NCBI GenBank assembly: GCA_001774495.1
Contig: MFAE01000005.1
Coordinates: forward strand, 26,583-90,582
Direction of reading: 5' to 3'
DNA: 64,000 nt
DNA from: Candidatus Campbellbacteria bacterium RIFOXYC2_FULL_35_25
GTDB taxonomy: Bacteria > Patescibacteriota > Minisyncoccia > Phycocordibacterales > UBA12079
Position 1 is the first letter of the stretch; every line of letters starts with the position of its first letter. The position numbers and the translations under genes are program-made. The notes beneath the pieces were generated by a model that had not been told where the DNA came from, searched no databases, and saw only the letters and a list, made by a program, of their open reading frames with translations. Below are positions 5,453 through 52,943 of the stretch, one piece after another.

Positions 5453-5716
5453 CTATTTTAAATCTGCAGCTTGAATAGGACTTTGTATTAAAGGAGGCGT
5501 CATATCGATTTCACCAAACTGTTTTTCATATTCGGCTACTTGTTTATTTATCCAGATGGCAATACTTTTCATAATCTGAGGTGTTGTCGCAAAAGAATCA
5601 AGATTATTACCGGATGTGATAGCAAAGGAAAATAAATCCTTTGCATAACCGCCAATGGCTCCATCACAGAATTTTTTTGGTAATTCGTTTAAATTTATTT
5701 TTGTTGGATCTATCAT
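5453..5716 (-). CDS. hypothetical protein
   Basis: 87-aa ORF, AT-rich native composition, bidirectional terminator 5382-5413 downstream. Confidence 0.4.
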   Translation of the reverse strand: MIDPTKINLNELPKKFCDGAIGGYAKDLFSFAITSGNNLDSFATTPQIMKSIAIWINKQVAEYEKQFGEIDMTPPLIQSPIQAADLK

Positions 5717-5906
5717 ATTTTTTAATTATTATAAGTAATACTCATATGCTATCATAAAAACATCTTTTTTTACTTTGAAATCAAAAAACTTGATTTTGAA
5801 TTTATGTTTGGTATCATCAATGGAATATTAACTCTATTTTAAAATAGTTGTTAAAAAGGAAATGCCTGTATAAAAATAGTGAATATTACAGTATAATATC
5901 CAAATT

Positions 5907-5928
5907 GGCCCTATCGTCTAACGGTTAT
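5907..5928 (+). pseudogene. tRNA-Glu 5' fragment (first ~21 nt) with duplicated promoter; part of 43-bp direct repeat
   Basis: attacagtataatatccaaattggccctatcgtctaacggtta occurs at 5886-5928 and again at 6074-6116 where it continues into the intact tRNA. Confidence 0.7.
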
Positions 5929-6094
5929 TGGAATAAAAAAACAAACTGCTTTGTTTTTTATCCAGTTCTGAGTGTAACGAAGAAATTTCCTTTATCGAAC
6001 GAAGTGAGATAGGAAATAGGGTAAGCCTTCGTTGAAGGCGATGTCTGCTTAAGACATATAAAAATAATCAAGATTACAGTATAATATCCAAATT

Positions 6095-6166
6095 GGCCCT
6101 ATCGTCTAACGGTTAGGACATCGCCTTCTCAAGGCGGAAATTCGGGTTCGATTCCCGGTAGGGTCA
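6095..6166 (+). tRNA. tRNA-Glu (anticodon CUC)
   Basis: GGCCCTA acceptor pairs with TAGGGTC (one G-U); Glu-type short D arm TCGTCTAACGGTTAGGACA; anticodon stem TCGCC/GGCGG, loop TTCTCAA (U33, A37); T-loop TTCGATT; close to E. coli tRNA-Glu. Confidence 0.85.
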
Positions 6167-6217
6167 CACCAAAAGTAAATCCGCCTGAATAAGGCAGATT
6201 TACTTTTGGTGTGACCC
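6161..6217. repeat. 57-bp inverted repeat (25-bp arms) that embeds the tRNA-Glu 3' end; likely terminator/processing hairpin
   Basis: gggtcacaccaaaagtaaatccgcc / ggcagatttacttttggtgtgaccc, one G-U-compatible mismatch. Confidence 0.8.
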
Positions 6218-6267
6218 TAAGAAAGCAAACTTCTTTGCTTTCGTCAGGAATCGAACGGCGGAGTATG

Positions 6268-6381
6268 TCGAGCGAAGCGAGACAGCGAGCCGCGTCCAGC
6301 GATACTTAGGATTTTTTAAAACACGAAGTGACTTAAAAAAGACTTAGTGATCGCGGGACGATTCCCTCCTGTAGGGTCACA
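6268..6381. repeat. tRNA-associated repeat modules: GC-rich cgagcgaagcgagacagcgagccgcg module, inverted copy of GTCCCGCGAT(T/C)ACTAAGTCTTTT, and degenerate tRNA 3'-end copy gggacgattccctcctgtagggtcaca (6355-6381)
   Basis: matches 24841-24863 (inverted) and tRNA-Glu 3' end cgattcccggtagggtcaca. Confidence 0.6.
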
Positions 6382-6431
6382 AACAAAAACCTCCCCACAC
6401 TTACGTGTGAGGAGGTTTTTGTTTAAATACC

Positions 6432-7901
6432 CTAAACCAAAGGTCTCATTATCGGAAAGAAAACCGTGTCTCTTAGATTACTTTGTTCTGTCAAAATTGC
6501 AACCAGTCTATCAATTCCCATACCAAAACCTGTCATTGGTGGCATCCCGTGTTCCATGGCATCAATAAATTCTGAATTAAATTCCATAGCTTCTGCATCT
6601 CCCTGTTCTTTCATCTTCATTTGTTTTTCCAAAAGATCTCTTTGAACAATAGGGTCAACTAACTCTGCATATTGATTGGTTACTTCAGCGCCATTGATAA
6701 CAAGTTGTGCTACTTCGGCTGTCCCGTCTTCGTTTTGGATAGCTAAGGGCTTTAAGGAACCAGGGTAATGAGTAACAAAAGTTGGATTAATAATTTTTCC
6801 TCGAGAACTTTTTTTGAAAACAAAATCAATCAAGTTACCGTCTGAAATTTTAGAAATTTCTTTTCCGTCAAAACCCAATTTCAAAGCATTTTTTTCTATT
6901 TCTTCTCGGCTAGCCCCTTGCGGATTCCAACCAGTGTTTTTCTCTACCAAATCATTAAAGCGAACTCTTTCCCATTTTTTATCTAAATCAATTTCAACCT
7001 CTTTCCCTTTCTCGTCAAAATTTTTAAATTGCATTTTACCTACTACATTTTTAGCAATATTCTTTATCATCTCTTCTGTCAGTTTAATATTATACTCAAG
7101 GTCTTTATAAGCTCTATACCATTCAATCATAGTAAACTCTTGAATGTGAGAAGGGTCTGAGCCTTCATTTCTAAAATTCTTACCGATTTCGTAAACAGCC
7201 GTGTAACCCCCAACCATAATCATTTTCAATTCTGCTTCCAAAGAAATTCTTAAAACCATATCAATATCATAATCATTGTGGTGAGTTTTAAATGTTTCAG
7301 CAATAGCCCCGGAAGCCTGATTTTGAAGAATAGGAGTTTCCACTTCCAAAAAACCTTCACCATCCAGTATTTTTCTTATTTCTGAAATAACTTTGGCTCT
7401 GATTATAAAACGATTTTGAGCATCTTTATCCATCAAAACATCTAAATATCTTTTTCGGTATTTTTGTTCAATATCTTGAAGACCGTGCCATTTCTCTGGC
7501 AAAGGTCTCAAACTCTTACTTATTATATCCCAACTGGAAACAACCACGGACTGCTGTCCCCTTTTGGTTGTAAATAATTTTCCTTCAACTTGAATAAAAT
7601 CTCCAATATCCATCACTTCTTCAAAAAAATTAAAAGATTCTTCAGTTACATCTTCTTTTTTTAAGATTCCTTGAAAAACAGCTGTTCCGTCATCAAAATT
7701 GAAAAAGGTTAAACCACCTTGAGGTCTTAAGGACATAATTCGCCCTACCAACTTTACATCTTTATCTTCTTTAAAACCCTCTGTTACCTCTTTTAAAGTA
7801 AGATCAAAATCCACCTTGGATGGATAAGGATTAATTTTATTTTTTTCTATTTTCTCCTTTTTTTCAATACGAACTTTGCGTATTTCATCTAGTGATGACA
7901 T
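6432..7901 (-). CDS. lysS: lysyl-tRNA synthetase, class II
   Basis: 489 aa; N-terminal OB anticodon-binding, class II motifs (FLEVETPIL, YEIGKNFRNEG, GFGMGIDRL). Confidence 0.95.
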   Translation of the reverse strand: MSSLDEIRKVRIEKKEKIEKNKINPYPSKVDFDLTLKEVTEGFKEDKDVKLVGRIMSLRPQGGLTFFNFDDGTAVFQGILKKEDVTEESFNFFEEVMDIGDFIQVEGKLFTTKRGQQSVVVSSWDIISKSLRPLPEKWHGLQDIEQKYRKRYLDVLMDKDAQNRFIIRAKVISEIRKILDGEGFLEVETPILQNQASGAIAETFKTHHNDYDIDMVLRISLEAELKMIMVGGYTAVYEIGKNFRNEGSDPSHIQEFTMIEWYRAYKDLEYNIKLTEEMIKNIAKNVVGKMQFKNFDEKGKEVEIDLDKKWERVRFNDLVEKNTGWNPQGASREEIEKNALKLGFDGKEISKISDGNLIDFVFKKSSRGKIINPTFVTHYPGSLKPLAIQNEDGTAEVAQLVINGAEVTNQYAELVDPIVQRDLLEKQMKMKEQGDAEAMEFNSEFIDAMEHGMPPMTGFGMGIDRLVAILTEQSNLRDTVFFPIMRPLV

Positions 7902-9247: not shown

Positions 9248-9345
9248 ACGTTTAATTATATATTAATTAGTAAGTGGGTGGTAGGAATAAATTAAAAAAG
9301 GTTTTAACTAAAAACTATCAACTATAAACTATAAACTAAACAAAT

Positions 9346-15315: not shown

Positions 15316-15600
15316 AACAACTCCTCCTTATACTCAATATTTGACTAAGATGAACATCTCAAAAAATCTATAGATATAGTAATACTAATTGACTCATTTG
15401 TAAATAGTAAGAAAAAATTTTGAGAAGGCTATAACAACGAAAAACAAGGCGAATTTTGACTCCGTCAAAATTCGCCTTGTTACTTAATACTTATTACTTA
15501 ATACTGGGGATAAAAATCTTCGATTTTTATCCCCACTTCCTCCCCACTTTAATATCTTTTAAAGGTTTGGGCATTTTTTTCATTGTGCTAGAATACTTCA

Positions 15601-23053: not shown

Positions 23054-23364
23054 AAAAAAGTTTTCAACATTTTTAACTTATCAAAAAATAGTGTAGTATT
23101 CGCTGATGTTCCCAGAAAATAAAAACCGTAATATAAAAAATGAATATGATATCCTCTTAATTTTTATGTTAATGGGAACAGTAATCACCGGTGTTTTTTT
23201 ATTTAAAGTGTCATCTTTTGTTGCGGTAAAAAGCTTTGATTTATTGATGTTAGCAACGGTCAGTAGTTTTTAATTTTTTTATAGAGTAAAATATAAATAT
23301 CTTTTAAAAAAATATTTTATAAATTAATTCTATAAACTATCAACTATAGACTACAAACTTAAAT

Positions 23365-24648: not shown

Positions 24649-24749
24649 GATATTCCTCCGTGTCTGAATGGATAAAATGATACTTCCTGCGATATTTATA
24701 CACTATTAGTGGTTATTTGTCAAGGAGTTTTAAATGGCTCTTTTATACG

Positions 24750-24930
24750 GGCTCGTCTCGCGGTTACTAATTTAAAACGGGCTTCGGTCACAAATCACTA
24801 AGTATATTTTTCGCGCTTCGCAACTGCTTAGGGGCGGGTCGTCCCGCGATTACTAAGTCTTTTATTTATTCAAGACTAGTAAAAAGGACTCGGTCACGAA
24901 TCACTAACTTTTTTATTCGTCCTCCGGACT
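24750..24930. repeat. cluster of short direct repeats (T/C)ACTAA units: CGCGGTTACTAA, GGTCACAAATCACTAAG, CCCGCGATTACTAAGTC, CGGTCACGAATCACTAAC; shared with tRNA-Gly and tRNA-Glu loci
   Basis: 24891-24927 ~85% identical to 26425-26460; 24841-24863 matches 6339-6360 inverted. Confidence 0.7.
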
Positions 24931-25040
24931 CCAAAAAACTAAGTGTTCGCGACCCCGCCTCACTCGTCGTGCTCGCTATCGCTCCGCGCGACATCGTTCC
25001 GGCTTCCGAGCCCGCACACAAAGTCCTCAAGGACTTTGCT

Positions 25041-25104
25041 CCCTCGACACAGCAAAAGAAAAAAGACGAATAAATTCGTCTTTTTTCTTTTGCTGTGTCG
25101 AGGG
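25041..25104. repeat. 64-bp perfect palindrome (30-bp arms, loop taaa) whose right arm continues into the partial tRNA-Phe 3' copy
   Basis: ccctcgacacagcaaaagaaaaaagacgaa taaa ttcgtcttttttcttttgctgtgtcgaggg. Confidence 0.85.
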
Positions 25105-25148
25105 GCGGGCTCGGACCGCCGACCCTTCGCTCTTCAGGCGAATGCTCT
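25095..25148 (-). pseudogene. partial tRNA-Phe copy (3' 54 nt: acceptor 3' strand, T arm, anticodon arm, D-stem 3' strand), att-like direct repeat of intact gene
   Basis: 54/54 identity with 25289-25342 then divergence. Confidence 0.8.
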
Positions 25149-25290
25149 CCCTCCTATTGCCTGCTCGCCCTTCGGGACTCGCTTCGGCAATTTTTTGCTT
25201 CGCAAAAACCAGATAAAAAGCTTAAACGCTTTTTATCCAACTGAGCAACGCTCAGTTGCTAGAGCATTAATAAATTTAGTTTATACAGTG

Positions 25291-25363
25291 TGTCGAGGGG
25301 CGGGCTCGGACCGCCGACCCTTCGCTCTTCAGGCGAATGCTCTACCAACTGAGCTACCTCGAC
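25291..25363 (-). tRNA. tRNA-Phe (anticodon GAA)
   Basis: GTCGAGG/CCTCGAC acceptor, D arm TAGCTCAGTTGGTAGAGC, anticodon stem TTCGC/GCGAA loop CTGAAGA, T stem GGCGG/CCGCC with unusual T-loop TCCGAGC. Confidence 0.85.
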
Positions 25364-25494: not shown

Positions 25495-25794
25495 CTATCG
25501 AGGCAATTCGCCAGTTTTATCCAATAAGCTTGGGAGAATACCGGTCACCTTTTTTATATTTTCAACTAATGCACCAATCCCCTTCCCAACACTACCATAC
25601 CCCTGAGAAAAACCTTCTATTATTGGTTGAACATAGTAATAAGCGCCTAGAGCTAAGCCAATTATAATTAACCAATAAATAAATTTAGTAATTCTCTTCC
25701 ACTTTACGTCTGACCAAATCTTTGAGAGAATTTCATTGTTCTCCTTAGAGACTTCTAAATTTTCTTCTAGTAACTCTTTCAATTCCTCATCCAT
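25495..25794 (-). CDS. hypothetical membrane protein
   Basis: 99 aa, acidic N-terminus, one TM. Confidence 0.45.
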   Translation of the reverse strand: MDEELKELLEENLEVSKENNEILSKIWSDVKWKRITKFIYWLIIIGLALGAYYYVQPIIEGFSQGYGSVGKGIGALVENIKKVTGILPSLLDKTGELPR

Positions 25795-25935: not shown

Positions 25936-26007
25936 GCCCCCGTAGTTCAATGGATAGAACAGTCCCGTCCTAAGGGATAGATGTGGGTTCGATTCTTGCC
26001 GGGGGCA
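25936..26007 (+). tRNA. tRNA-Arg (anticodon CCU)
   Basis: GCCCCCG/CGGGGGC acceptor, D arm TAGTTCAATGGATAGAAC, anticodon stem GTCCC/GGGAT loop GTCCTAA, T-loop TTCGATT (T stem has 3 G-U pairs); hairpin terminator 26035-26053. Confidence 0.7.
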
Positions 26008-26091
26008 CATGTATAAGAAATTTAAAAAACAAAAAAATCCCCTCTAGGGATTTTTTTGTTTTACTATAATCTATAAACTATCTACTACCAA

Positions 26092-26325: not shown

Positions 26326-26404
26326 AATAAATTAAAGATTAAATTTAATAACGAATTTTATTATAACATAATAAATGGGAACGCAAAATTTTCTTGTATC
26401 TTAT

Positions 26405-26631
26405 TCATGGGTAGGGAGGAGAATCGGTCACGAATCACTAAGCCTTTTGTTCGTCCTCCGCTCGATCATTAGTTTATTGTAGGGAGAATCGCCTTCCAGT
26501 TCTAAGTTCAGCCTTCGCCCTTCGGGACTCGTCTTCACTAAGAACTCGCAGGCCCGTCGCTCGTATTTTTCTTTCGCTTCACTACAGAAAAATATACTTC
26601 GCTCTTTCCGATTCTCCCTACCCGCTACAAA
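26405..26631. repeat. tRNA-Gly-associated mosaic: two direct partial copies of the tRNA-Gly 3' end (26409-26427, 26478-26493), one inverted copy (26607-26625), CGGTCACGAATCACTAAG module (26425-26460) and TCGCCCTTCGGGACTCG module (26515-26531, also at 25165-25181)
   Basis: direct sequence comparison with tRNA-Gly 26675-26745 and tRNA-Phe locus. Confidence 0.75.
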
Positions 26632-26674
26632 AATAAACAAAAACAGAGCTATTCGCTCTGATTTTGTATTTTTG

Positions 26675-26745
26675 TGCGGGTAGGGAGAATCGGACTCCCG
26701 TCTCATCCTTGGGAAGGACGTGTCATACCACTAAACTATACCCGC
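26675..26745 (-). tRNA. tRNA-Gly (anticodon CCC)
   Basis: GCGGGTA/TACCCGC acceptor, anticodon stem CGTCC/GGATG loop TTCCCAA, T stem GGGAG/CTCCC with T-loop TCCGATT. Confidence 0.8.
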
Positions 26746-26809
26746 ATAGATGAATTTTTAATTTCAAATTTCAATTCATTACTACAAACTACTCACTACT
26801 CACTACCAA

Positions 26810-27187
26810 CTAATCAAACCATCCTAAAAACTTGCTCCAAATTCCATCACCTTTACCATCATCTTCTTTTTGCTTGGTGTCTTTGGGATCAATTATCAAA
26901 ACCATTTTTTCTCCACTTTTTGCCACACCAAATTTGCTTCTTATCTCTCCCTCCTCTCCTTCTTTCGTTTTCAAAATTTCAATTTCAGACGATAGATTCT
27001 CTCCTCTTTCTTTTAACTCTTCTAATTCCCGTTGAGCAAGCTCTTTATTAATTCTTGTAATTTTTGATTCCCTGTAAGCGGTCCAAACTCCTTTTAAAAT
27101 AAAAAGGGTCACCAAGGCAAGCAAAAAAATAGTAACCTTTGAATAAATAATTCTTCTGACTACTTGTTTTTCTTCAAAATCAAACAT
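26810..27187 (-). CDS. FtsB/DivIC-like septum formation initiator
   Basis: 125 aa, N-terminal TM, coiled coil, IRSKFGVAKSGEKMVLI matching FtsB C-terminal motif. Confidence 0.6.
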   Translation of the reverse strand: MFDFEEKQVVRRIIYSKVTIFLLALVTLFILKGVWTAYRESKITRINKELAQRELEELKERGENLSSEIEILKTKEGEEGEIRSKFGVAKSGEKMVLIIDPKDTKQKEDDGKGDGIWSKFLGWFD

Positions 27188-28254: not shown

Positions 28255-28293
28255 TAAAAAGGTTTAGCAACAGTTGTTGCTAAACCTTTTTTT
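28255..28293. terminator. hairpin ggtttagcaacagttgttgctaaacc + T-run
   Basis: between convergent 27999..28223 and leuS. Confidence 0.7.
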
Positions 28294-28326
28294 ACTTACT
28301 ACTTGATACTTGCTACTTATTACTTA

Positions 28327-30777
28327 CTACTCATTACTCTCTACCACAATGTTTAAAATTCTATTTTTGACGTAAATGATCTTTTTGGGTTCTTTTCCTT
28401 CAAGCCATTTTTTTATCAATTCGCTTGCAAGAGCTTTCTTGCTAACATCCTCTTCCTCAGTTCCCTCTTCTATTTCTATAGTCTCTCTAACTTTTCCATT
28501 TACCTGAACGGCTATTTTGTGGATACTGTCTTTAGACAAGCTCTCATCAAATTTTGGCCAACTTTCATCTTGAATCAAACTTTCATTTCCCAACTGGTGC
28601 CAAAGCTCTTGTGTAATATGCGGAGCAAAAGGAGAAAGTATTGTTAAAAATGTTTGATAATCTTCTTTTGAGATACTTGATTTTTTTACTGTGTTTATAA
28701 ATTTCATCATATCAGAAACAGCAGTATTATAAGCCAACTCATCTATACCTTTCGTCATTCTTTTAATTGTCTTATGCAATTCCCTAACAACATCTTCAGA
28801 ACTTTTTTCTTTTAGTTCATCTTTGGTAAACCAAACTTTTTCCAAAAATCTATAAACTCCCACTATATTATCTTCATTCCACATTACCTCGTCTTCCAAT
28901 GGTGCAGCAAAAAGCATATAAGTCCTTACGGAATCAGCCCCAAAACTTTTAACCATATCATCTGGATTAACCACATTACCCTTTGATTTGCTCATTTTCT
29001 TGCCCTGCGCGTCCAAAACCATCCCTTGGTGCCTTAGCTTCAAAAACGGCTCATCAAAGTCTAGAAGGCCTATTTTGTTCATCGCTTTTGTGAAAAAACG
29101 AGCAAATAATAAGTGCATATAAGTATGTTCGGCCCCACCAATATACAAATCAACCGGCAACCATTTCTTACGAATTTCTGAACAAAACTCAGAATCATTT
29201 AGAGCATCTGGATATCTTAAAAAGTACCAAGAAGAATCAACAAAAGTGTCCATGGTGTCATATTCGGGAGTCCAACCTTTTCCAAAAATTTTTTCAGTTC
29301 TTTCTTTAAATTCTTTTGAAGCCCCTAATGGAGAAACTCCCTTTGGTTTAAAATCAACATCGATGGGAAGAATCCAAGGAAGATGCTCTTCAGGAACCAA
29401 GGTCGCCTTACCCTCGGGAGAATAAACGATCGGAATCGGACAACCCCAATATCTCTGTCGAGAAATTGACCAATCTCTTAAACGATAATTGGTTGTCATT
29501 TCCCCACCAACAAATTCTGTAATTTTCTTCTTAGCTTCTTCGGAGTTCATTCCATTGAATTGTCCTGATTCCATAAGTAACCCAAAACCTATCGTTGCAA
29601 AACCAGACTCACGAGCACTTTTTATTTTTAATTCTGCTAATCCTGGAATAATTTCGTCAACAGATTTAACCTCAGCTATAACTGGCTTAATTTCAATATC
29701 TTTTTGTAATGCAAACTGAAGGTCTCTATCATCATGAGCCGGCACCGCCATAATCGCACCAGTTCCATAGTTAACCAACACATAATCAGCAATGAAAACT
29801 GGTATTTCTTCGCTGTTAGCTGGATTAATAGCCGAAATTCCCTCAAGCTTCACCCCTGTCTTCTCTTTACCCTCTATTCTCTCCATTTCTGTCTTATTTT
29901 GAGCTTTAATCCCGTACTCCTCAACCTCGTCCCAGTTTGTAATTTGGTCCTTCAATTCGGAAACAAGCGAATGTTCTGGGGCAAGCACCATATAAGTAGC
30001 ACCAAACAAAGTGTCAGGACGAGTAGTAAATACCTCTATTTCGTTCGCTGTTAGCTGTGATCTGTGAGCTGTCAGCTTAAACTTAATCTTTGCTCCTTCA
30101 CTCTTCCCTATCCAATTTCTCTGATTTTTTTTAGTATGTTCTGGCCAATCAACTTTGTCTAAGTCATTAATTAAATCATCGGCGAAATCTGTAATCTTGA
30201 AAAACCACCCTGGTATTTTTTTCTGTTCAATTTGGGTTCCGCATCTTTCACACTCACCATTAAGAACTTGTTCGTTCGCAATTACAGTCTGGCAAGAAGA
30301 ACACCAATTTGCTTTTTGTGTACTTTGATAAACTAAATCATTTTTATAAAATTGTTGAAAAATCCATTGAGTCCATTTGTAGTATTTTGGATCAGAGGTT
30401 ACTGCCTGTTCATCAAAATCATAATTAAGACCCAACATCTTCATTTGTTTAATATAATTGCTGATATTTTTTTCAGTAGTTTGGGCGGGGTGAACTCCTG
30501 TTTTTATTGCAAAGTTTTCAGCCGGCAAACCAAAGGCGTCAAACCCTTGAGGGTGCAAAACATTAAATCCCTGCATCTTTTTGAAACGGTAATATACATC
30601 ACTCGCGGTATAACTTTCAGTATGTCCCATATGAAGACCATCACCGGACGGATAAGGAAACATATCAAGCATGTAAAACTTATTTTTAGTATCGTCTTTG
30701 TCTATTTTAGAAACCTTATTTTCCTCCCAAATCTTTTGCCATTTCCCCTCAATATCATTGTGATTGTATTTTTCCAT
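28327..30777 (-). CDS. leuS: leucyl-tRNA synthetase
   Basis: 816 aa, HMGH and KMSKS motifs, editing (CP1) domain. Confidence 0.95.
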   Translation of the reverse strand: MEKYNHNDIEGKWQKIWEENKVSKIDKDDTKNKFYMLDMFPYPSGDGLHMGHTESYTASDVYYRFKKMQGFNVLHPQGFDAFGLPAENFAIKTGVHPAQTTEKNISNYIKQMKMLGLNYDFDEQAVTSDPKYYKWTQWIFQQFYKNDLVYQSTQKANWCSSCQTVIANEQVLNGECERCGTQIEQKKIPGWFFKITDFADDLINDLDKVDWPEHTKKNQRNWIGKSEGAKIKFKLTAHRSQLTANEIEVFTTRPDTLFGATYMVLAPEHSLVSELKDQITNWDEVEEYGIKAQNKTEMERIEGKEKTGVKLEGISAINPANSEEIPVFIADYVLVNYGTGAIMAVPAHDDRDLQFALQKDIEIKPVIAEVKSVDEIIPGLAELKIKSARESGFATIGFGLLMESGQFNGMNSEEAKKKITEFVGGEMTTNYRLRDWSISRQRYWGCPIPIVYSPEGKATLVPEEHLPWILPIDVDFKPKGVSPLGASKEFKERTEKIFGKGWTPEYDTMDTFVDSSWYFLRYPDALNDSEFCSEIRKKWLPVDLYIGGAEHTYMHLLFARFFTKAMNKIGLLDFDEPFLKLRHQGMVLDAQGKKMSKSKGNVVNPDDMVKSFGADSVRTYMLFAAPLEDEVMWNEDNIVGVYRFLEKVWFTKDELKEKSSEDVVRELHKTIKRMTKGIDELAYNTAVSDMMKFINTVKKSSISKEDYQTFLTILSPFAPHITQELWHQLGNESLIQDESWPKFDESLSKDSIHKIAVQVNGKVRETIEIEEGTEEEDVSKKALASELIKKWLEGKEPKKIIYVKNRILNIVVESNE

Positions 30778-32249: not shown

Positions 32250-32343
32250 ATTATTTATATTATTGAGATTAATAAAAATTCTAATAATAAACTAGAAATT
32301 GAATAGAGAATCATGAATTAAGAATTCTGAATCATGATTCTTT

Positions 32344-32410
32344 ATTCGTGATTCGTGATTCGTGATTCGTGATTCGTGATTCGTGATTCGTGATTCGTGA
32401 TTCGTGATTC
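32344..32410. repeat. heptanucleotide tandem repeat (ATTCGTG) x 9.5, perfect
   Basis: attcgtg units 32344-32406 plus attc; intergenic between SPFH stop (32432) and start of 31695..32249. Confidence 0.95.
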
Positions 32411-33208: not shown

Positions 33209-33372
33209 GGTTAATTTAGTTTATAGTCTATAGTTTTTAGTCTATAGAAAAATATAGTATTAATAATATAATTATAACACAGTCTAGTTTTTAGTTGATA
33301 GTTGATAGTTTTTAGGAAAAAGAAAAAGCCCGTCCCGGAAAAAATTTCATGAGTCTCTCAATTCCTTGCTTT

Positions 33373-33438: not shown

Positions 33439-33485
33439 AACCATGGTGATCTATCCTAACCAATTTAAATATTTTACGAGAAAAA

Positions 33486-33953
33486 AGCCCGTCCCGGAAA
33501 CCGGGGCGGGCTACAAAACAACAAAAAGATAGCTCGGGATCGCTGGGTGGCGGTTTGAAAATTTCATTGACCGTCGCCTTCAGGGCGGTTTTTTACGTCG
33601 CAGGCGTCTCTTTTTGGTGTTTTTCTATTTGGAAACCTCCCCATATAAACAGAGAAGCTCCACCCATAAGAGCAAAACAAATATAGAAAAAAAGCAGGGC
33701 AAAATGATGAAAGAAAAAATCATTTAACCAATTTCGATAAAAATCATTTAACAGAAGAATATTAAGATCTGAAAAAAACAATACTGATACCATCAAGAAA
33801 AAACCAATGGCCACAGAGCAATAAGCAATAGACTTCATAGCACTCCTCCTTTCTTTTTTATACTTTTTTATGAAAGACAAAAAATTCTAACCATAGACTA
33901 ACAACATAGACGAGGGTTGTCAATCATTTTGGCTTCTTTTACAATTATTTAGA
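33486..33953. repeat. 468-bp direct repeat, copy A (apparently 100% identical to 34461-34928); contains gene 33593..33880 and GC hairpin AGCCCGTCCCGGAAACCGGGGCGGGCT
   Basis: base-by-base comparison of the two stretches; identical 95-aa translations. Confidence 0.9.
33593..33880 (-). CDS. hypothetical small membrane protein (2-3 TM), copy A
   Basis: 95 aa; identical to 34568..34855. Confidence 0.5.
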   Translation of the reverse strand: MSFIKKYKKERRSAMKSIAYCSVAIGFFLMVSVLFFSDLNILLLNDFYRNWLNDFFFHHFALLFFYICFALMGGASLFIWGGFQIEKHQKETPAT

Positions 33954-34085
33954 AATTAAGAATTTAAAATTAATTTGATTTTAAAATTGGATGCGGAACG
34001 AAGGTTTGAGGTAGTTATTTGGAAAAAGAAAAAGCCCGTCCCGGATAACCGGAACGGGCTGCAAAACAACATTTGGTGTTTTTGT

Positions 34086-34292: not shown

Positions 34293-34460
34293 TCTTACCT
34301 CCTTATAATGGCTCTGGTTTTTTGTACCGGGTTAAATAATCTATCGTTAGATTAACAGATCAGATTATATTGTCAACAAAAAATTAATTTGATTTTAAAA
34401 TTGGATGCAGAACGAGGAGTTGAGGTAGTTTTTAGTTGATAGTTTTTAGGAAAAAGAAAA

Positions 34461-34928
34461 AGCCCGTCCCGGAAACCGGGGCGGGCTACAAAACAACAAA
34501 AAGATAGCTCGGGATCGCTGGGTGGCGGTTTGAAAATTTCATTGACCGTCGCCTTCAGGGCGGTTTTTTACGTCGCAGGCGTCTCTTTTTGGTGTTTTTC
34601 TATTTGGAAACCTCCCCATATAAACAGAGAAGCTCCACCCATAAGAGCAAAACAAATATAGAAAAAAAGCAGGGCAAAATGATGAAAGAAAAAATCATTT
34701 AACCAATTTCGATAAAAATCATTTAACAGAAGAATATTAAGATCTGAAAAAAACAATACTGATACCATCAAGAAAAAACCAATGGCCACAGAGCAATAAG
34801 CAATAGACTTCATAGCACTCCTCCTTTCTTTTTTATACTTTTTTATGAAAGACAAAAAATTCTAACCATAGACTAACAACATAGACGAGGGTTGTCAATC
34901 ATTTTGGCTTCTTTTACAATTATTTAGG
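34461..34928. repeat. 468-bp direct repeat, copy B
   Basis: identical to 33486-33953. Confidence 0.9.
34568..34855 (-). CDS. hypothetical small membrane protein, copy B (identical to 33593..33880)
   Basis: 95 aa identical protein. Confidence 0.5.
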   Translation of the reverse strand: MSFIKKYKKERRSAMKSIAYCSVAIGFFLMVSVLFFSDLNILLLNDFYRNWLNDFFFHHFALLFFYICFALMGGASLFIWGGFQIEKHQKETPAT

Positions 34929-40252: not shown

Positions 40253-40342
40253 AGAAAAAAAAGCAAGCTTCTTGTTGATAACTCAAATTTAATTTACAGA
40301 GTCTTAGTCTCTGTAAATTAAATTTGAGTTATCAACAAGAAG
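40253..40342 (-). terminator. exceptionally long perfect hairpin (34-bp arms, 7-nt loop) followed on minus strand by U9: probable murJ terminator
   Basis: cttcttgttgataactcaaatttaatttacagag tcttagt ctctgtaaattaaatttgagttatcaacaagaag; A-run 40253-40262 on plus. Confidence 0.65.
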
Positions 40343-40456
40343 TAATAAGTAGTAAGTAGTGAGTATTAAGTTTCTGGATTGCTTCAGGCTTCGCCTTCGC
40401 AAAGACAAAAATCGTTTGCTATAAGCTATCGGCTATTAGCTATTAGCTTTCTAATA

Positions 40457-45726: not shown

Positions 45727-45845
45727 AGAAAATTTTTACGAAAATTTTAGTATTAAGTAATAAGTAGTAAGTATTAAGTATAAATGAAAAAGTTAAAAGT
45801 TGAAAGTTTATAATTTCTAGCGAGGACGAAAGGGAGGTATAGTCC

Positions 45846-46289: not shown

Positions 46290-46594
46290 GGTTCTGAATT
46301 GCTTCGAAATTACTCCCCGAGGCCTCACCTCTCCCGTCGTTTCGCTTCGCTCCACTTCTCCTCGAGGACTTAAAATTTTTTAGGAAAAGTTTTAAGCAAC
46401 GACGGGCCTCCGTCCGTAATTTCTCGCAAAGACGACGAAAGGCAGAGCCTTTCGTCGTCTTTTAAAAATTAATTTATTAAAAATTTTTAAACCCCCACCC
46501 CTTTCTTTTCCAAAACAAAGGTGTGGGGGTTTAAAAATTAAAAATTAAAAATTTCAGATGTTTTTTCTACTCACTACTCACTACCAACTACTCA

Positions 46595-47527
46595 CTATTC
46601 CTGTGCAACTTTTTCTATACTAGCAGAAACTAATTTTCCCACGTCTTTGAAACGGCCTTCTCGGGAAGAACCTAAAACAGAAACAATGATAGGATGACCT
46701 ATGCCAATATCAAAAGCGATAACTAAATTTCCTCCAGCCAAATCTGTAAAGCCGGTTTTAGAAGCAATTATTCCGGGGATGGCTTCCGCGTATTGATTGG
46801 TATTGTAAACAGTATGAGTAAAATCTTTTGATTTTATTTCCAAACTCGAATATTTTGTAGCCTCAAGAATCTGCGGTTTCTCTTTTATGATCTGCCCCAT
46901 TAGCATAGCCACATCTTTTGCCGAACCATAGGCCCCACCAACATCCTGACTTACATCTAACCCAGATTCGTTTAAAAAATAAGTTTGGATTAATCCTAAA
47001 TTTTGAGCTTTTTGGTTCATTTCTTTAATAAACATTTCTTCCTGTGTTTGTCCCTCTCCTGTATTAATAGAACCTATGATAGAGGCAAGGGCGTGCGCTC
47101 CATCATTAGATGAAGATACTAAAGTAAAGTCCAAAACATCAGCGAGTCTCCATTTTTCACCCATCAAGAAACCACTATCCCCTTCTTCGTTGATGTCCTG
47201 ACTGTCTATGGTAACAATGATTCCTTCTGGAACTAATTCTGAAACAACTAGTGCTGTCATTAACTTTGTTAAAGATGCCAAAGGTAACTGAGCTTCCCCA
47301 TTCATTGAATAAATTATTTTATTTTCGTAAGTGTCCCAAACGAAAGCTGATTTTGCTTCCAAAACCAAGTCTTCAAATGGATCTATTTTTTCTTCCGCAA
47401 TATTGACCTCTGATTCAATTATTATTTCTTCTTTTTTACTTAAAAAATAAAAAAGAAAAACGCCCACCAAAACGACAGTGGTTGTTATTAGAACAATAAT
47501 TTTATTTTTATTTTTTGCGAAATTCAC
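46595..47527 (-). CDS. D-alanyl-D-alanine carboxypeptidase (S11, PBP5-like)
   Basis: 310 aa, SLTK, SSN, KTGFT motifs, N-terminal TM. Confidence 0.8.
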   Translation of the reverse strand: MNFAKNKNKIIVLITTTVVLVGVFLFYFLSKKEEIIIESEVNIAEEKIDPFEDLVLEAKSAFVWDTYENKIIYSMNGEAQLPLASLTKLMTALVVSELVPEGIIVTIDSQDINEEGDSGFLMGEKWRLADVLDFTLVSSSNDGAHALASIIGSINTGEGQTQEEMFIKEMNQKAQNLGLIQTYFLNESGLDVSQDVGGAYGSAKDVAMLMGQIIKEKPQILEATKYSSLEIKSKDFTHTVYNTNQYAEAIPGIIASKTGFTDLAGGNLVIAFDIGIGHPIIVSVLGSSREGRFKDVGKLVSASIEKVAQE

Positions 47528-48967: not shown

Positions 48968-49027
48968 GTGAATAAGTATAAAGTAGTAAGTATCAAGTAT
49001 CAAGTTTGAAACTTTTAATTAGTATTT

Positions 49028-52858: not shown

Positions 52859-52943
52859 AATTTGGTTTTTAGTTGTTAGTTATTAGTATTCTTCAGAATT
52901 TTTTTAGCTGTAAGCTGTCGGCTGTGAGCTGTAAGCTTTTCTA

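Follow-up and report, generated by a model that had tools for sequence, protein, structure and literature searches.

Bacteria contain several families of small interspersed structured repeats, among them REP/BIME/REPIN, Correia (NEMIS), RPE, ERIC, BOX and RUP. The integrative elements that target genes for tRNA and transfer-messenger RNA (tmRNA) have reportedly been divided into sublocation classes by Williams in 2002, and the tyrT locus of Escherichia coli is followed by the rtT/Tpr region, in which units of 178 bp occur about three times, each starting with the last 19 nt of tRNA-Tyr. The 64,000-nt stretch from Candidatus Campbellbacteria bacterium RIFOXYC2_FULL_35_25 analyzed here (contig MFAE01000005.1, positions 26,583 to 90,582; hereafter the window) invites comparison with all of these. 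It carries three copies of a structured non-coding element, each located behind a tRNA gene or a partial tRNA copy and each endowed with an antisense copy and a second sense copy of the 3′ end of that tRNA.

Like the REP, Correia and ERIC types of repeat, the element is non-coding, multicopy, hairpin-rich, 100-200 nt long and extragenic, just 3′ of genes; it overlaps or supplies terminators, is presumably co-transcribed, and forms subfamilies as well as tandem and mosaic arrangements. Those repeats end in a fixed terminal inverted repeat, whereas the closing helix of the present element copies the upstream tRNA or tmRNA. Furthermore, and unlike them, it occurs almost exclusively behind tRNA/tmRNA genes and in the orientation of the tRNA, its core is a three-way junction with conserved nucleotides, and no RAYT or transposase partner was seen in the loci. 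With the integrative elements, integrase-less derivatives and cis-mobilisable elements included, it shares a direct repeat of the tRNA tail that begins in the T loop, an intact tRNA gene, the use of tmRNA and tandem accretion, but here the whole insert amounts to about 200 nt, is non-coding and includes the extra antisense copy; moreover, an attP site carries one fixed tRNA tail, whereas one core family serves all 20 tRNA types. The tyrT units resemble it as tandem downstream units with a tRNA 3′ end whose copy number varies by unequal recombination, as that of a 195-nt tRNA-Phe unit varies in the window organism, and differ in being confined to a single locus of one lineage, with neither an antisense copy nor a structured core common to several tRNAs.

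The window has a G+C content of about 35%, and its LeuRS is 100% identical to the protein of Candidatus Campbellbacteria bacterium RIFOXYC2_FULL_35_25, which places the genome in the Patescibacteria. Its tRNA genes were called by ARAGORN and checked with Rfam, which recognized four true tRNAs (Table 1). The initial annotation had pointed to three tRNAs ending in long inverted repeats that include their own 3′ acceptor strand. The feature is present at three loci, which are two tRNA genes, tRNA-Glu and tRNA-Gly, and one partial copy of tRNA-Phe, called by ARAGORN as a second tRNA-Phe at 25095-25169 (−) and recognized by Rfam only as a 3′ partial copy. The inverted repeats are 61-91 nt long and take in 9-21 nt of the tRNA 3′ end. 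That of tRNA-Glu, first given as 57 bp, measures 61 nt (6159-6219), with arms of 28 nt (6159-6186 and 6192-6219) that are 96% complementary around a 5-nt loop, the left arm containing the final 9 nt of the tRNA. The 64-nt palindrome behind tRNA-Phe, initially described as perfect, has two mismatches (96.9%) and overlaps the final 10 nt of the partial copy; the functional tRNA-Phe gene has other small hairpins downstream, not this palindrome. The match proposed for tRNA-Gly between 26678 and 26607 stands: the inverted repeat at 26607-26694 (88% over 91 columns) includes a 19/19 antisense copy of nt 52-70 of the tRNA. BLAST E-values for the inverted repeats, computed within three small regions, range from 2e-17 to 5e-22.

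At tRNA-Glu and tRNA-Phe the antisense copy consists of two collinear pieces, an acceptor part and a T-stem/T-loop part, with a 25-nt hairpin inserted between them. Shuffled tRNA fragments scored about 10 at the 95th percentile and 11-13 at most; the Gly copy scores 19, and the Glu and Phe pieces score 9-11, each being near the shuffle limit when taken singly. The extra degenerate copy of the 3′ end that had been noted at each locus was found as well, for Glu at 6359-6380, for Gly at 26479-26491 and again at 26409-26427, and for Phe at 24830-24847, together with weaker copies. The motif cttagtgattcgtgacc adjoins these downstream copies and occurs within the window at these loci only. The centre of each inverted repeat is a hairpin composed of an A-tract, a GC stem and a T-tract, like terminators elsewhere in the genome; a scan of positions 5700-6500 for consensus terminators called none, though the hairpin centres look terminator-like by eye. 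An internal control is provided by tRNA-Arg, whose terminator stops short of the acceptor and which has neither tail copies nor an element.

To find related copies, public metagenome contigs were scanned for exact matches to TTAGTGATTYGTGACCGA, and a covariance model, R1, was then applied to 100 loci; the figures that follow rest on the matches listed, which include more than 120 exact stretches. Nearly all of them show the upstream blocks ..CGAGnCGGGGTCGCGAACACTTAG, a variable hairpin and ACTTAGTGATTCGTGACCGA, and then a variable tRNA-like tail made of the T-loop 3′ half, the T-stem 3′ strand, the acceptor 3′ strand and the discriminator of a tRNA. When the contig has enough upstream DNA, an intact tRNA on the same strand ends mostly 140-190 nt before the motif. 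In other contigs the tail is often identical to this tRNA (16/16), and in the window the two are degenerate.

On the tRNA-sense strand the order is the tRNA ending in a repeat termed S (nt 56-73), a hairpin t1, an arm A, a core of about 110 nt, the second tail copy S′ and usually a second terminator; at some loci (L067, L152) a second copy of t1 follows S′. Arm A is the antisense of nt ~54-73, and a generic hairpin, P1a, often separates its acceptor part from its T-stem part, exactly at their boundary; the position of P1a and its AG...CGT flanks recur in many metagenome copies. After arm A come ..ATTCGAA AG nCG GAG, a variable hairpin, CGAG CGn GG, a long hairpin with a conserved base, and CGA joined to S′. 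The model hits lie directly behind the flagged tRNAs: what had been noted as an inverted repeat at the window loci is S pairing with arm A over t1, and the degenerate copy of the 3′ end corresponds to S′. As terminal repeats, A and S′ vary with the tRNA, their constant part being only the inner, TCGA-proximal bases, and the C55 of the window tRNA-Phe and tRNA-Gly is mirrored as G in their A arms, so that the arms follow the local tRNA.

Single-sequence folds across the loci consistently gave a three-way junction closed by the pairing of A with S′ (helix P1). Helix P2 comprises 3 bp, a GA-rich internal loop and a variable hairpin, and P3 has a conserved base with an invariant G.U pair and a variable tip. 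RNAalifold recovered P1, P2, P2a and P3 from 50 sequences, with 88.6% of the cells paired in the full structure against 33-38% in slid controls and a covariation score of 0.374 against at most 0.094; none of 500 shuffles matched these figures. Within the 3-bp P2, the middle pair is GC in 16 cases, AU in 15, CG in 13 and UA in 4. This covariation supports a structured single strand beyond the register and shuffle controls. When R1 was run on the whole window with filters off, it gave exactly three significant hits, one behind each flagged locus. The Glu hit spans the second part of arm A (6245-6255), P2/P2a, P3 with compensatory changes and the beginning of S′, and in the Gly core the base of P3 covaries (GAGUUCUUAG / CUUAGAAC); another compensatory variant of the P3 base was found in L136. 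The compensatory changes at Glu and Gly indicate that the window copies are folded members of the family and not debris.

The strand that folds can also be told. In P2 and P3 together, G.U cells outnumber A.C cells by 187 to 39, or by 85 to 39 when the invariant G.U, present in 102 of 118 sequences, is left out, and in 50 of 50 sequences the sense strand gives a more stable fold than the complement does, with a mean difference of 9.6 kcal/mol. Both observations indicate that the structured molecule is the tRNA-sense strand, as RNA or as single-stranded DNA. The GA-rich internal loop of P2 (GGA/GA) may be a k-turn-like protein site. As a separate observation, a tip GAGCGAAGCGA(A/G) recurs in P2a or P3b at many loci (e.g., L047, L098 and L126; 6268-6285 in the window), and consists of a GCGAAGC mini-hairpin flanked by tandem G.A; the GCGAAGC heptamer is an unusually stable DNA mini-hairpin.

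In the 100 metagenome loci, R1 located 127 non-overlapping elements. For 80 of the 104 that were assessable, a tRNA or tmRNA gene lies on the same strand within 450 nt upstream, at a median of 62 nt from the model start, while 8 are in tandem after another element and 16 are seemingly orphan. Several of these orphans are in fact placed behind tmRNA genes missed by ARAGORN, and true exceptions are L104, where a core devoid of tRNA-like arms comes right after the rpsI terminator, and L084, where a second t1-A-core-S′(Ala) copy lies at a distance of 4 kb from tRNA-Ala. The hosts cover all 20 amino-acid types and tmRNA, and more than half of the tRNA genes in the contigs examined carry about 200 nt of element, up to arrays of four. 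An antisense copy of the last 20 nt was found within 150 nt of the tRNA in 62 of 79 element-bearing tRNAs and in 7 of 53 tRNAs with no model hit; the latter seven have divergent cores with the same arm layout, indicating that the superfamily is larger than R1 detects.

One explanation of the inverted repeats is that they are ordinary Rho-independent terminators with stems that chance to reach the acceptor strand, since the repeat centres have the same A-tract, GC stem and T-tract as the hairpins after tRNA-Arg and at 6381-6424. Chance does not produce the 19/19 Gly copy, the collinear two-piece copies at Glu and Phe, the R1 hits directly downstream or the difference between element-bearing and element-free tRNAs, and the tRNA-Phe terminator of a relative stops short of the acceptor, so that this explanation retains hardly any credence. 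The initial annotation had itself judged the architecture to be recurrent, tied to tRNA 3′ ends and beyond a terminator, a judgement upheld by the conserved core and second tail copy and by the counts from other contigs. The contrary case it had considered, that other tRNAs have no such feature and the three loci are plain terminators, is true in its first half for tRNA-Arg, not in its second.

S and S′ flank the insert as direct repeats of the 3′ part of the tRNA, as is the case for integrative elements at tRNA genes, and the proposed likeness to integration sites is correct to the extent that the downstream copy repeats the tRNA tail from the T loop onward. The accompanying idea of an integrating element no longer present fails, as the element is still there, a conserved, structured, non-coding sequence of 130-190 nt between the repeats. 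In a variant of that idea, the repeats would be attL/attR scars of integrase islands that once resided in the tRNA T loop and were since deleted, the hairpin being a target-site mimic. The use of tmRNA and the start of the repeats in the T loop agree with it, as do a tmRNA locus where gene and element are 2.6 kb apart (L069) and a variable Cys-rich gene adjoining tRNA-Arg in a strain variant. However, random deletion remnants would not share the same covarying 130-190 nt at more than 100 loci, integration yields no antisense copy, no integrase occurs in the neighbourhood of the window loci or recurs in 120 loci, and viral contigs, phages and plasmids gave no match; we regard such scars as very improbable, and this reading and that of plain terminators are essentially excluded.

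The searches behind these statements were as follows. R1 had no hits in 809 kb of viral DNA picked for 15-nt matches (84 loci, all chance), the viral contigs had no exact match to the 18-nt motif, and BLAST of phage and plasmid collections found nothing. No R1 hits were obtained in about 119 kb of lysS-flanking loci from a genome collection (mostly Patescibacteria; a single tRNA gene). All 4227 Rfam families, including IS605-orfB, HEARO, group I/II introns, ribozymes, ROOL/GOLLD and Y RNA, returned only tRNA and tmRNA, the best other hit on the isolated element having an E-value of 0.18, far below the gathering score. The literature, searched by motif strings and several keyword sets, gave nothing on this element. 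The family is widespread, specific to tRNA/tmRNA 3′ flanks in Patescibacteria, and apparently undescribed. No recombinase domain was found in the open reading frames (ORFs) neighbouring the window loci, and the inserts of 130-400 nt contain no ORFs. When 816 ORFs from 687 kb of element-bearing loci (genome fragments) were clustered, only housekeeping families recurred; ORF families in the 120 loci were judged by sequence and clustering only.

Comparison of related genomes revealed that occupancy is patchy. The closest sampled relative with usable contigs (L245/L246; LeuRS 75% identical) has the same order as the window, DivIC, tRNA-Gly(CCC), grx, tRNA-Arg(CCT), an ORF, tRNA-Phe and convergent yqeY, and gave no element hits with filters off; behind its nearly identical tRNA-Phe comes a single plain terminator, which stops short of the acceptor, and yqeY is 43 nt away, against 1473 nt in the window. 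More distant syntenic genomes, with grx 49-60% and the ORF of 99 codons (orf99) 28-44% identical, have the element behind tRNA-Phe, and one locus (L074) has it behind tRNA-Arg(CCT), the site that is bare in the window. The cores, in turn, do not stay with one tRNA: the nearest neighbour of a core comes from a different amino-acid type in 56 of 65 cases, with an identity of 0.8-0.97 that includes the variable hairpins, and in L083 two copies share lineage-specific changes that reach the T-loop-derived inner bases of both arms. It follows that cores move or homogenize between loci and that the outer arms stay local.

Tandem arrays occur as well: in L068 a tmRNA tail is followed by four units whose core subtypes alternate, and L125 has two units. 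Two independent assemblies of the window organism have three copies of the 195-nt unit (Phe 3′ part and spacer), and one of these assemblies was built with k=141 and is beyond confusion by a 55-nt repeat; the third copy follows the second tRNA-Phe tail, in place of the palindrome (L027 4678-4927, L029 1634-1709), which amounts to a copy-number polymorphism. Same-strain contigs (L001-L004, L027-L035) are 99.5-100% identical, L028 and L031 matching over part of their length. They revealed no empty site, and at element loci they differ solely in how many copies of the Phe unit they have. At lysS, the 22 related genomes compared keep greA-lysS and in none is tRNA-Glu located there, the closest species representatives having a lysS identity of at most 76%. 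These comparisons show that the element is gained or lost at orthologous sites and that its cores are exchanged between tRNA loci.

Movement could be due to a derivative of single-stranded DNA transposons (an IS200/IS605-type PATE or a REP/REPIN-like element) mobilized in trans by a Y1/HUH enzyme, which would recognize the P2/P3 hairpins and cut TCGA-like sites at T-arm-like hairpin tips. Two adjacent conserved hairpins between ...TCGAA and CGA..., a single functional strand (G.U bias and fold stability), d(GCGAAGC)-type tips and the existence of copies with no tRNA would suit such an origin, and in one subfamily GTAG precedes arm A, reminiscent of the GTAG-tagged REPs in the available text of PMC3733652. 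On the other hand, no Y1 transposase or RAYT-like family recurs in the 687 kb of element-bearing loci, no Y1/HUH gene was seen among the 816 ORFs of these genome fragments, the Rfam IS605-orfB and HEARO models were unmatched, and such elements insert at any target of 4-5 nt, not almost only behind tRNAs. The tRNA-matched arms are left unexplained, and the window element tracks the tRNA orientation on both strands within one GC-skew domain, a weak argument from three loci. We consider this origin improbable, more so than the regulatory role discussed below.

The interpretation that we prefer, to which we would assign about half of our confidence, is a non-autonomous element that is gained and lost, is structured on its sense strand, is tolerated (the tRNA remains intact and excision would be tRNA-like), and takes its arms from the host gene. 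We infer an interspersed element that is selfish, or domesticated at most, and that tRNA expression does not require. The element would be co-transcribed with the tRNA through read-through, and would necessarily be so inside tRNA clusters; copies lie between co-oriented tRNAs 17-100 nt apart, with a t1 that is not terminator-like (L046, L057, L079 and L099), so that at least some copies would have to be transcribed. Pairing of A with S′ would keep arm A off the acceptor and T stems of the tRNA, and would mimic the acceptor/T helix, P1a taking the place of the D and anticodon arms at their point of exit, so that RNase P and RNase Z could excise the element. RNAs with tRNA-like ends are known, among them the plant mitochondrial t-elements, mascRNA, the tRNA-like domain of tmRNA and the viral tRNA-like structures. 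By analogy with these, the A:S′ helix with its P1a side arm would be a plausible substrate for RNase P and RNase Z, as an acceptor/T-like helix with a discriminator and a side hairpin could recruit both enzymes and the CCA-adding enzyme; unlike them, it has no T loop, the helix runs into the core junction and its sequence is copied from the adjacent gene.

As to the arms, template switching during replication, or gene conversion, could copy them from the adjacent tRNA at two centres of palindromic symmetry, that of S-t1-A being the terminator loop and that of A-core-S′ the TCGA of the T loop. With the core taken out, A and S′ would join into a perfect palindrome, of which AATCGATT is an example. 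Tandem inversion duplication and quasi-palindrome template switching, events reportedly studied in the Roth, Ripley and Lovett laboratories, leave as their signature a triplet of sense, antisense and sense copies in which each junction falls at a short palindrome. The present triplet, with its junctions at the terminator loop and at the T-loop TCGA, is alike in this respect, and the analogy suggests that replication copies the arms from the tRNA and that the element does not carry them. Unlike those duplications, the triplet contains a conserved core (about 110 nt) at its second junction and P1a within the inverted copy, and recurs at many loci and genomes.

Several points weigh against this interpretation. 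Neither the surroundings of the elements nor the families that recur in the 120 loci yielded a transposase, integrase or reverse transcriptase, and a route from RNA to DNA has no obvious enzyme, because group II introns are reported as absent from Patescibacteria in the available text of PMC13011429. Conserved modules (the t1-like hairpin, P1a and the core) are interleaved with tRNA-specific segments, a pattern not given by simple palindrome extension, and, as a weak point, P1a splits arm A at one place across many tRNA types. At most loci t1 resembles an efficient terminator, so that the core may not be transcribed there. Among the positions at which S and S′ disagree, arm A matches only S in 26 and only S′ in 22; this lack of preference gives no sign of selection specific to P1. 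Finally, the same tRNA-Phe and tRNA-Gly(CCC) sites are filled in genomes whose neighbouring proteins are only 28-60% identical, and such shared distant sites, along with the fold-keeping compensatory changes, would also fit long-term selection for a host function.

Such a function might be that of a cis-acting switch beneficial to the host, whose junction would sense a ligand or a protein and whose arm A would pair either with S′, leaving the tRNA free to mature, or with the tRNA 3′ strand, sequestering the acceptor so that the tRNA is lost or termination is stronger. This would provide a global control of tRNA output in bacteria with few regulators. Minimum-free-energy folds predicted for read-through transcripts do pair the tRNA 3′ strand with arm A, and at Glu the tRNA 5′ acceptor strand is then predicted to pair with S′; on paper, the trailer would therefore compete with tRNA folding, and sequestering of the 3′ end, one of the two candidate roles in the initial annotation, is thermodynamically possible. 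The conserved junction nucleotides, the invariant G.U, the covariation, the constant orientation, the persistence at orthologous Phe and Gly sites across deep divergence and the copies inside tRNA clusters, where they would have to be transcribed (L046, L057, L079, L099), are what such a switch would show. However, the closest sampled relative has no element at the same tRNAs, the window tRNA-Arg is bare, tandem arrays, partial units and tRNA-less copies are the behaviour of a repeat element, arm A sits 3′ of a terminator-like hairpin, and several unrelated core types have an identical arm layout. A switch is unlikely, if less so than a transposon derivative.

More tentatively than the non-autonomous element preferred above, we propose that a new class of element or RNA is at hand, with a three-way-junction core and a closing helix rewritten to match the local tRNA or tmRNA. 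It could be a selfish propagator, spreading in a target-templated manner (by template switching or guided by RNA or single-stranded DNA) with no dedicated recombinase nearby, or a tRNA-mimicking RNA found throughout the candidate phyla radiation (CPR), made in step with each tRNA and gating or exploiting the maturation of its 3′ end.

Other candidates were rejected. A miniature inverted-repeat transposable element or other DDE derivative would have fixed terminal inverted repeats and a short target duplication of fixed length, and here A and S′ change from one tRNA to the next. A split or permuted tRNA and a tRNA intron can both be dismissed, since the tRNA upstream of the element is whole and uninterrupted and obtains a normal tRNA score; a formal reading with an intron at 55/56 and S′ as the 3′ exon exists but is unnecessary. 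The tRNA introns of Patescibacteria described in the available text of PMC13011429 are group I introns in the anticodon loop. On inspection, arm A has no TGG to pair with CCA, unlike a retroelement primer-binding site, and a hammerhead or other known ribozyme is contradicted by the lack of CUGAUGA and of any Rfam hit. Arm A does not derive from the 5′ acceptor strand either, as it complements U71 of the G2.U71 pair in tRNA-Glu and carries the antisense T loop.

Patescibacteria have genomes of roughly 0.6-1 Mb, and a load of this size in such tiny genomes would mean either a very successful parasite fitted to each tRNA or an unrecognized layer of tRNA biology. The element explains assembly breaks and copy-number variation at tRNA loci of CPR metagenome-assembled genomes, as well as "pseudo-tRNA" calls such as the partial tRNA-Phe, and R1 can be used for annotation. 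A recombination process of a templated or guide-like kind could come to light from arms that track their neighbour and alternate with conserved modules, and the loci offer a natural system for the competition between tRNA folding and antisense trailers.

Table 1. Positions of tRNA genes, element parts and other features in the window
Feature	Position	Strand	Remarks
tRNA-Glu(CTC)	6095-6167	+	ARAGORN; Rfam tRNA 59.8 bits
Glu repeat S	6149-6167	+	last 19 nt of the tRNA (C56 to N73+1)
Glu t1 hairpin	6168-6210	+	terminator-like; centre of the Glu repeat
Glu arm A, part 1	6211-6219	+	antisense of tRNA-Glu nt 65-73 (GTGACCCTA)
Glu P1a	6220-6244	+	small hairpin between acceptor and T-stem parts of arm A
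Glu core	6242-6373	+	covariance-model hit, 59.5 bits, E 1.1e-13
Glu S′	6359-6380	+	T-loop 3′ half, T stem, acceptor 3′ strand; 3′ strand of P1
Glu t2 hairpin	6381-6424	+	second terminator-like hairpin, after S′ and before the convergent lysS stop
Three further partial 3′ units, Phe	24740-24872	-	P3 3′ strand motif and degenerate Phe tail, e.g. 24830-24847
Phe core	24878-25018	-	near-consensus; model hit, 85.4 bits, E 1.4e-20
Phe P1a	25016-25040	-	outside the palindrome, on its lower-coordinate side
Phe 64-nt palindrome	25041-25104	-	end of S, t1, arm A part 1 (25041-50)
Partial tRNA-Phe copy	25095-25151	-	tRNA nt 18-74; last 19 nt serve the element as S
Functional tRNA-Phe(GAA)	25290-25363	-	first unit of the 195-nt tandem repeat; ARAGORN, Rfam
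tRNA-Arg(CCT)	25936-26008	+	terminator to 26062; internal control
Gly extra 3′ half-unit	26392-26460	-	contains GGTCACGAATCACTAAG exactly (plus strand) and a further degenerate Gly tail (26409-26427)
Gly variant core	26477-26620	-	model hit, 33.4 bits, E 1e-6; S′ = 26479-26491
Gly arm A	26607-26625	-	19/19 antisense copy
Gly t1 hairpin	26626-26673	-	
tRNA-Gly(CCC)	26674-26745	-	S = 26674-26692; ARAGORN, Rfam
Heptamer array before tRNA-Gly	26779-26815		
LeuRS	28327-30777	-	
Heptamer arrays	9306-9338, 15481-15505, 23330-23363, 28293-28338, 30047-30077, 32324-32410		
Heptamer arrays	40340-40371, 45749-45781, 46567-46597, 48974-49005, 52906-52937, others		

None of the four window tRNA genes encodes CCA (6166-6169, 25287-25291, 26006-26009 and 26672-26675); in all of them the acceptor stem is followed by A-C-A, that is, the discriminator A and then CA. 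The T loops of tRNA-Phe (TCCGAGC) and tRNA-Gly (TCCGATT) have C at position 55 in place of the nearly universal U (pseudouridine 55), and those of tRNA-Glu and tRNA-Arg are the usual TTCGATT. The cumulative GC skew has its maximum near ~3 kb and its minimum near 56-57 kb of the window, so that tRNA-Glu (+) and tRNA-Phe/Gly (−) lie on opposite strands of one skew domain, and each element follows its tRNA.

The 5′ parts of tRNA genes are repeated too. The promoter and first 21 nt of tRNA-Glu are duplicated 188 nt upstream (5869-5927 vs 6057-6115, 95% identical), the duplicate being followed by a terminator-like hairpin (5936-5959), and an inverted copy of nt 23-34 is located at 6034-6045. In the closest sampled relative (L246 5441-5530), three tandem copies of the promoter with nt 1-21 of tRNA-Arg precede that gene and a partial 3′ copy follows it; together, the two cases make repeats of 5′ fragments a second recurring feature of tRNA loci in the lineage. 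Between the tRNA-Phe gene and its partial copy, a hairpin at 25237-25268 consists of antisense (nt 28-10) and sense (nt 7-19) copies of the D arm, with a terminator-like hairpin beyond it (25212-25237), and a 22-nt piece at 25165-25185 matches the P3 tip of the Gly element (26515-26536).

Contigs of the window organism often break at tRNA loci. In L002 (5975-6051), the upstream partial tRNA-Glu copy equals the promoter and 5′ region of the true gene for 77 nt, and then the contig ends; as 77 nt is the k-mer length of the assembler, this is probably an assembly end induced by the repeat and not a variant. A contig of the same organism from another sample (L028 729-1889) departs from the window 86 nt past tRNA-Arg and has a Cys-rich, repeat-rich protein of 386 aa in place of the 99-aa ORF at 25495-25794; a similar Cys-rich protein of 674 aa is located between tmRNA and its element in L069.

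Degenerate heptamer tandem arrays (e.g., ATTCGTG x12.6, AACTATA, TACTTAC, GCTGTGA) occur in many intergenic regions, often just upstream of genes, and the element motif tagtGATTCGTGAcc resembles two units of the array at 32324-32410. An exact direct repeat of 300 nt is present at 33482-33781 and 34457-34756, with a spacing of 975 nt, and shorter related repeats are found at 33292-33341, 33998-34047 and 34426-34475.

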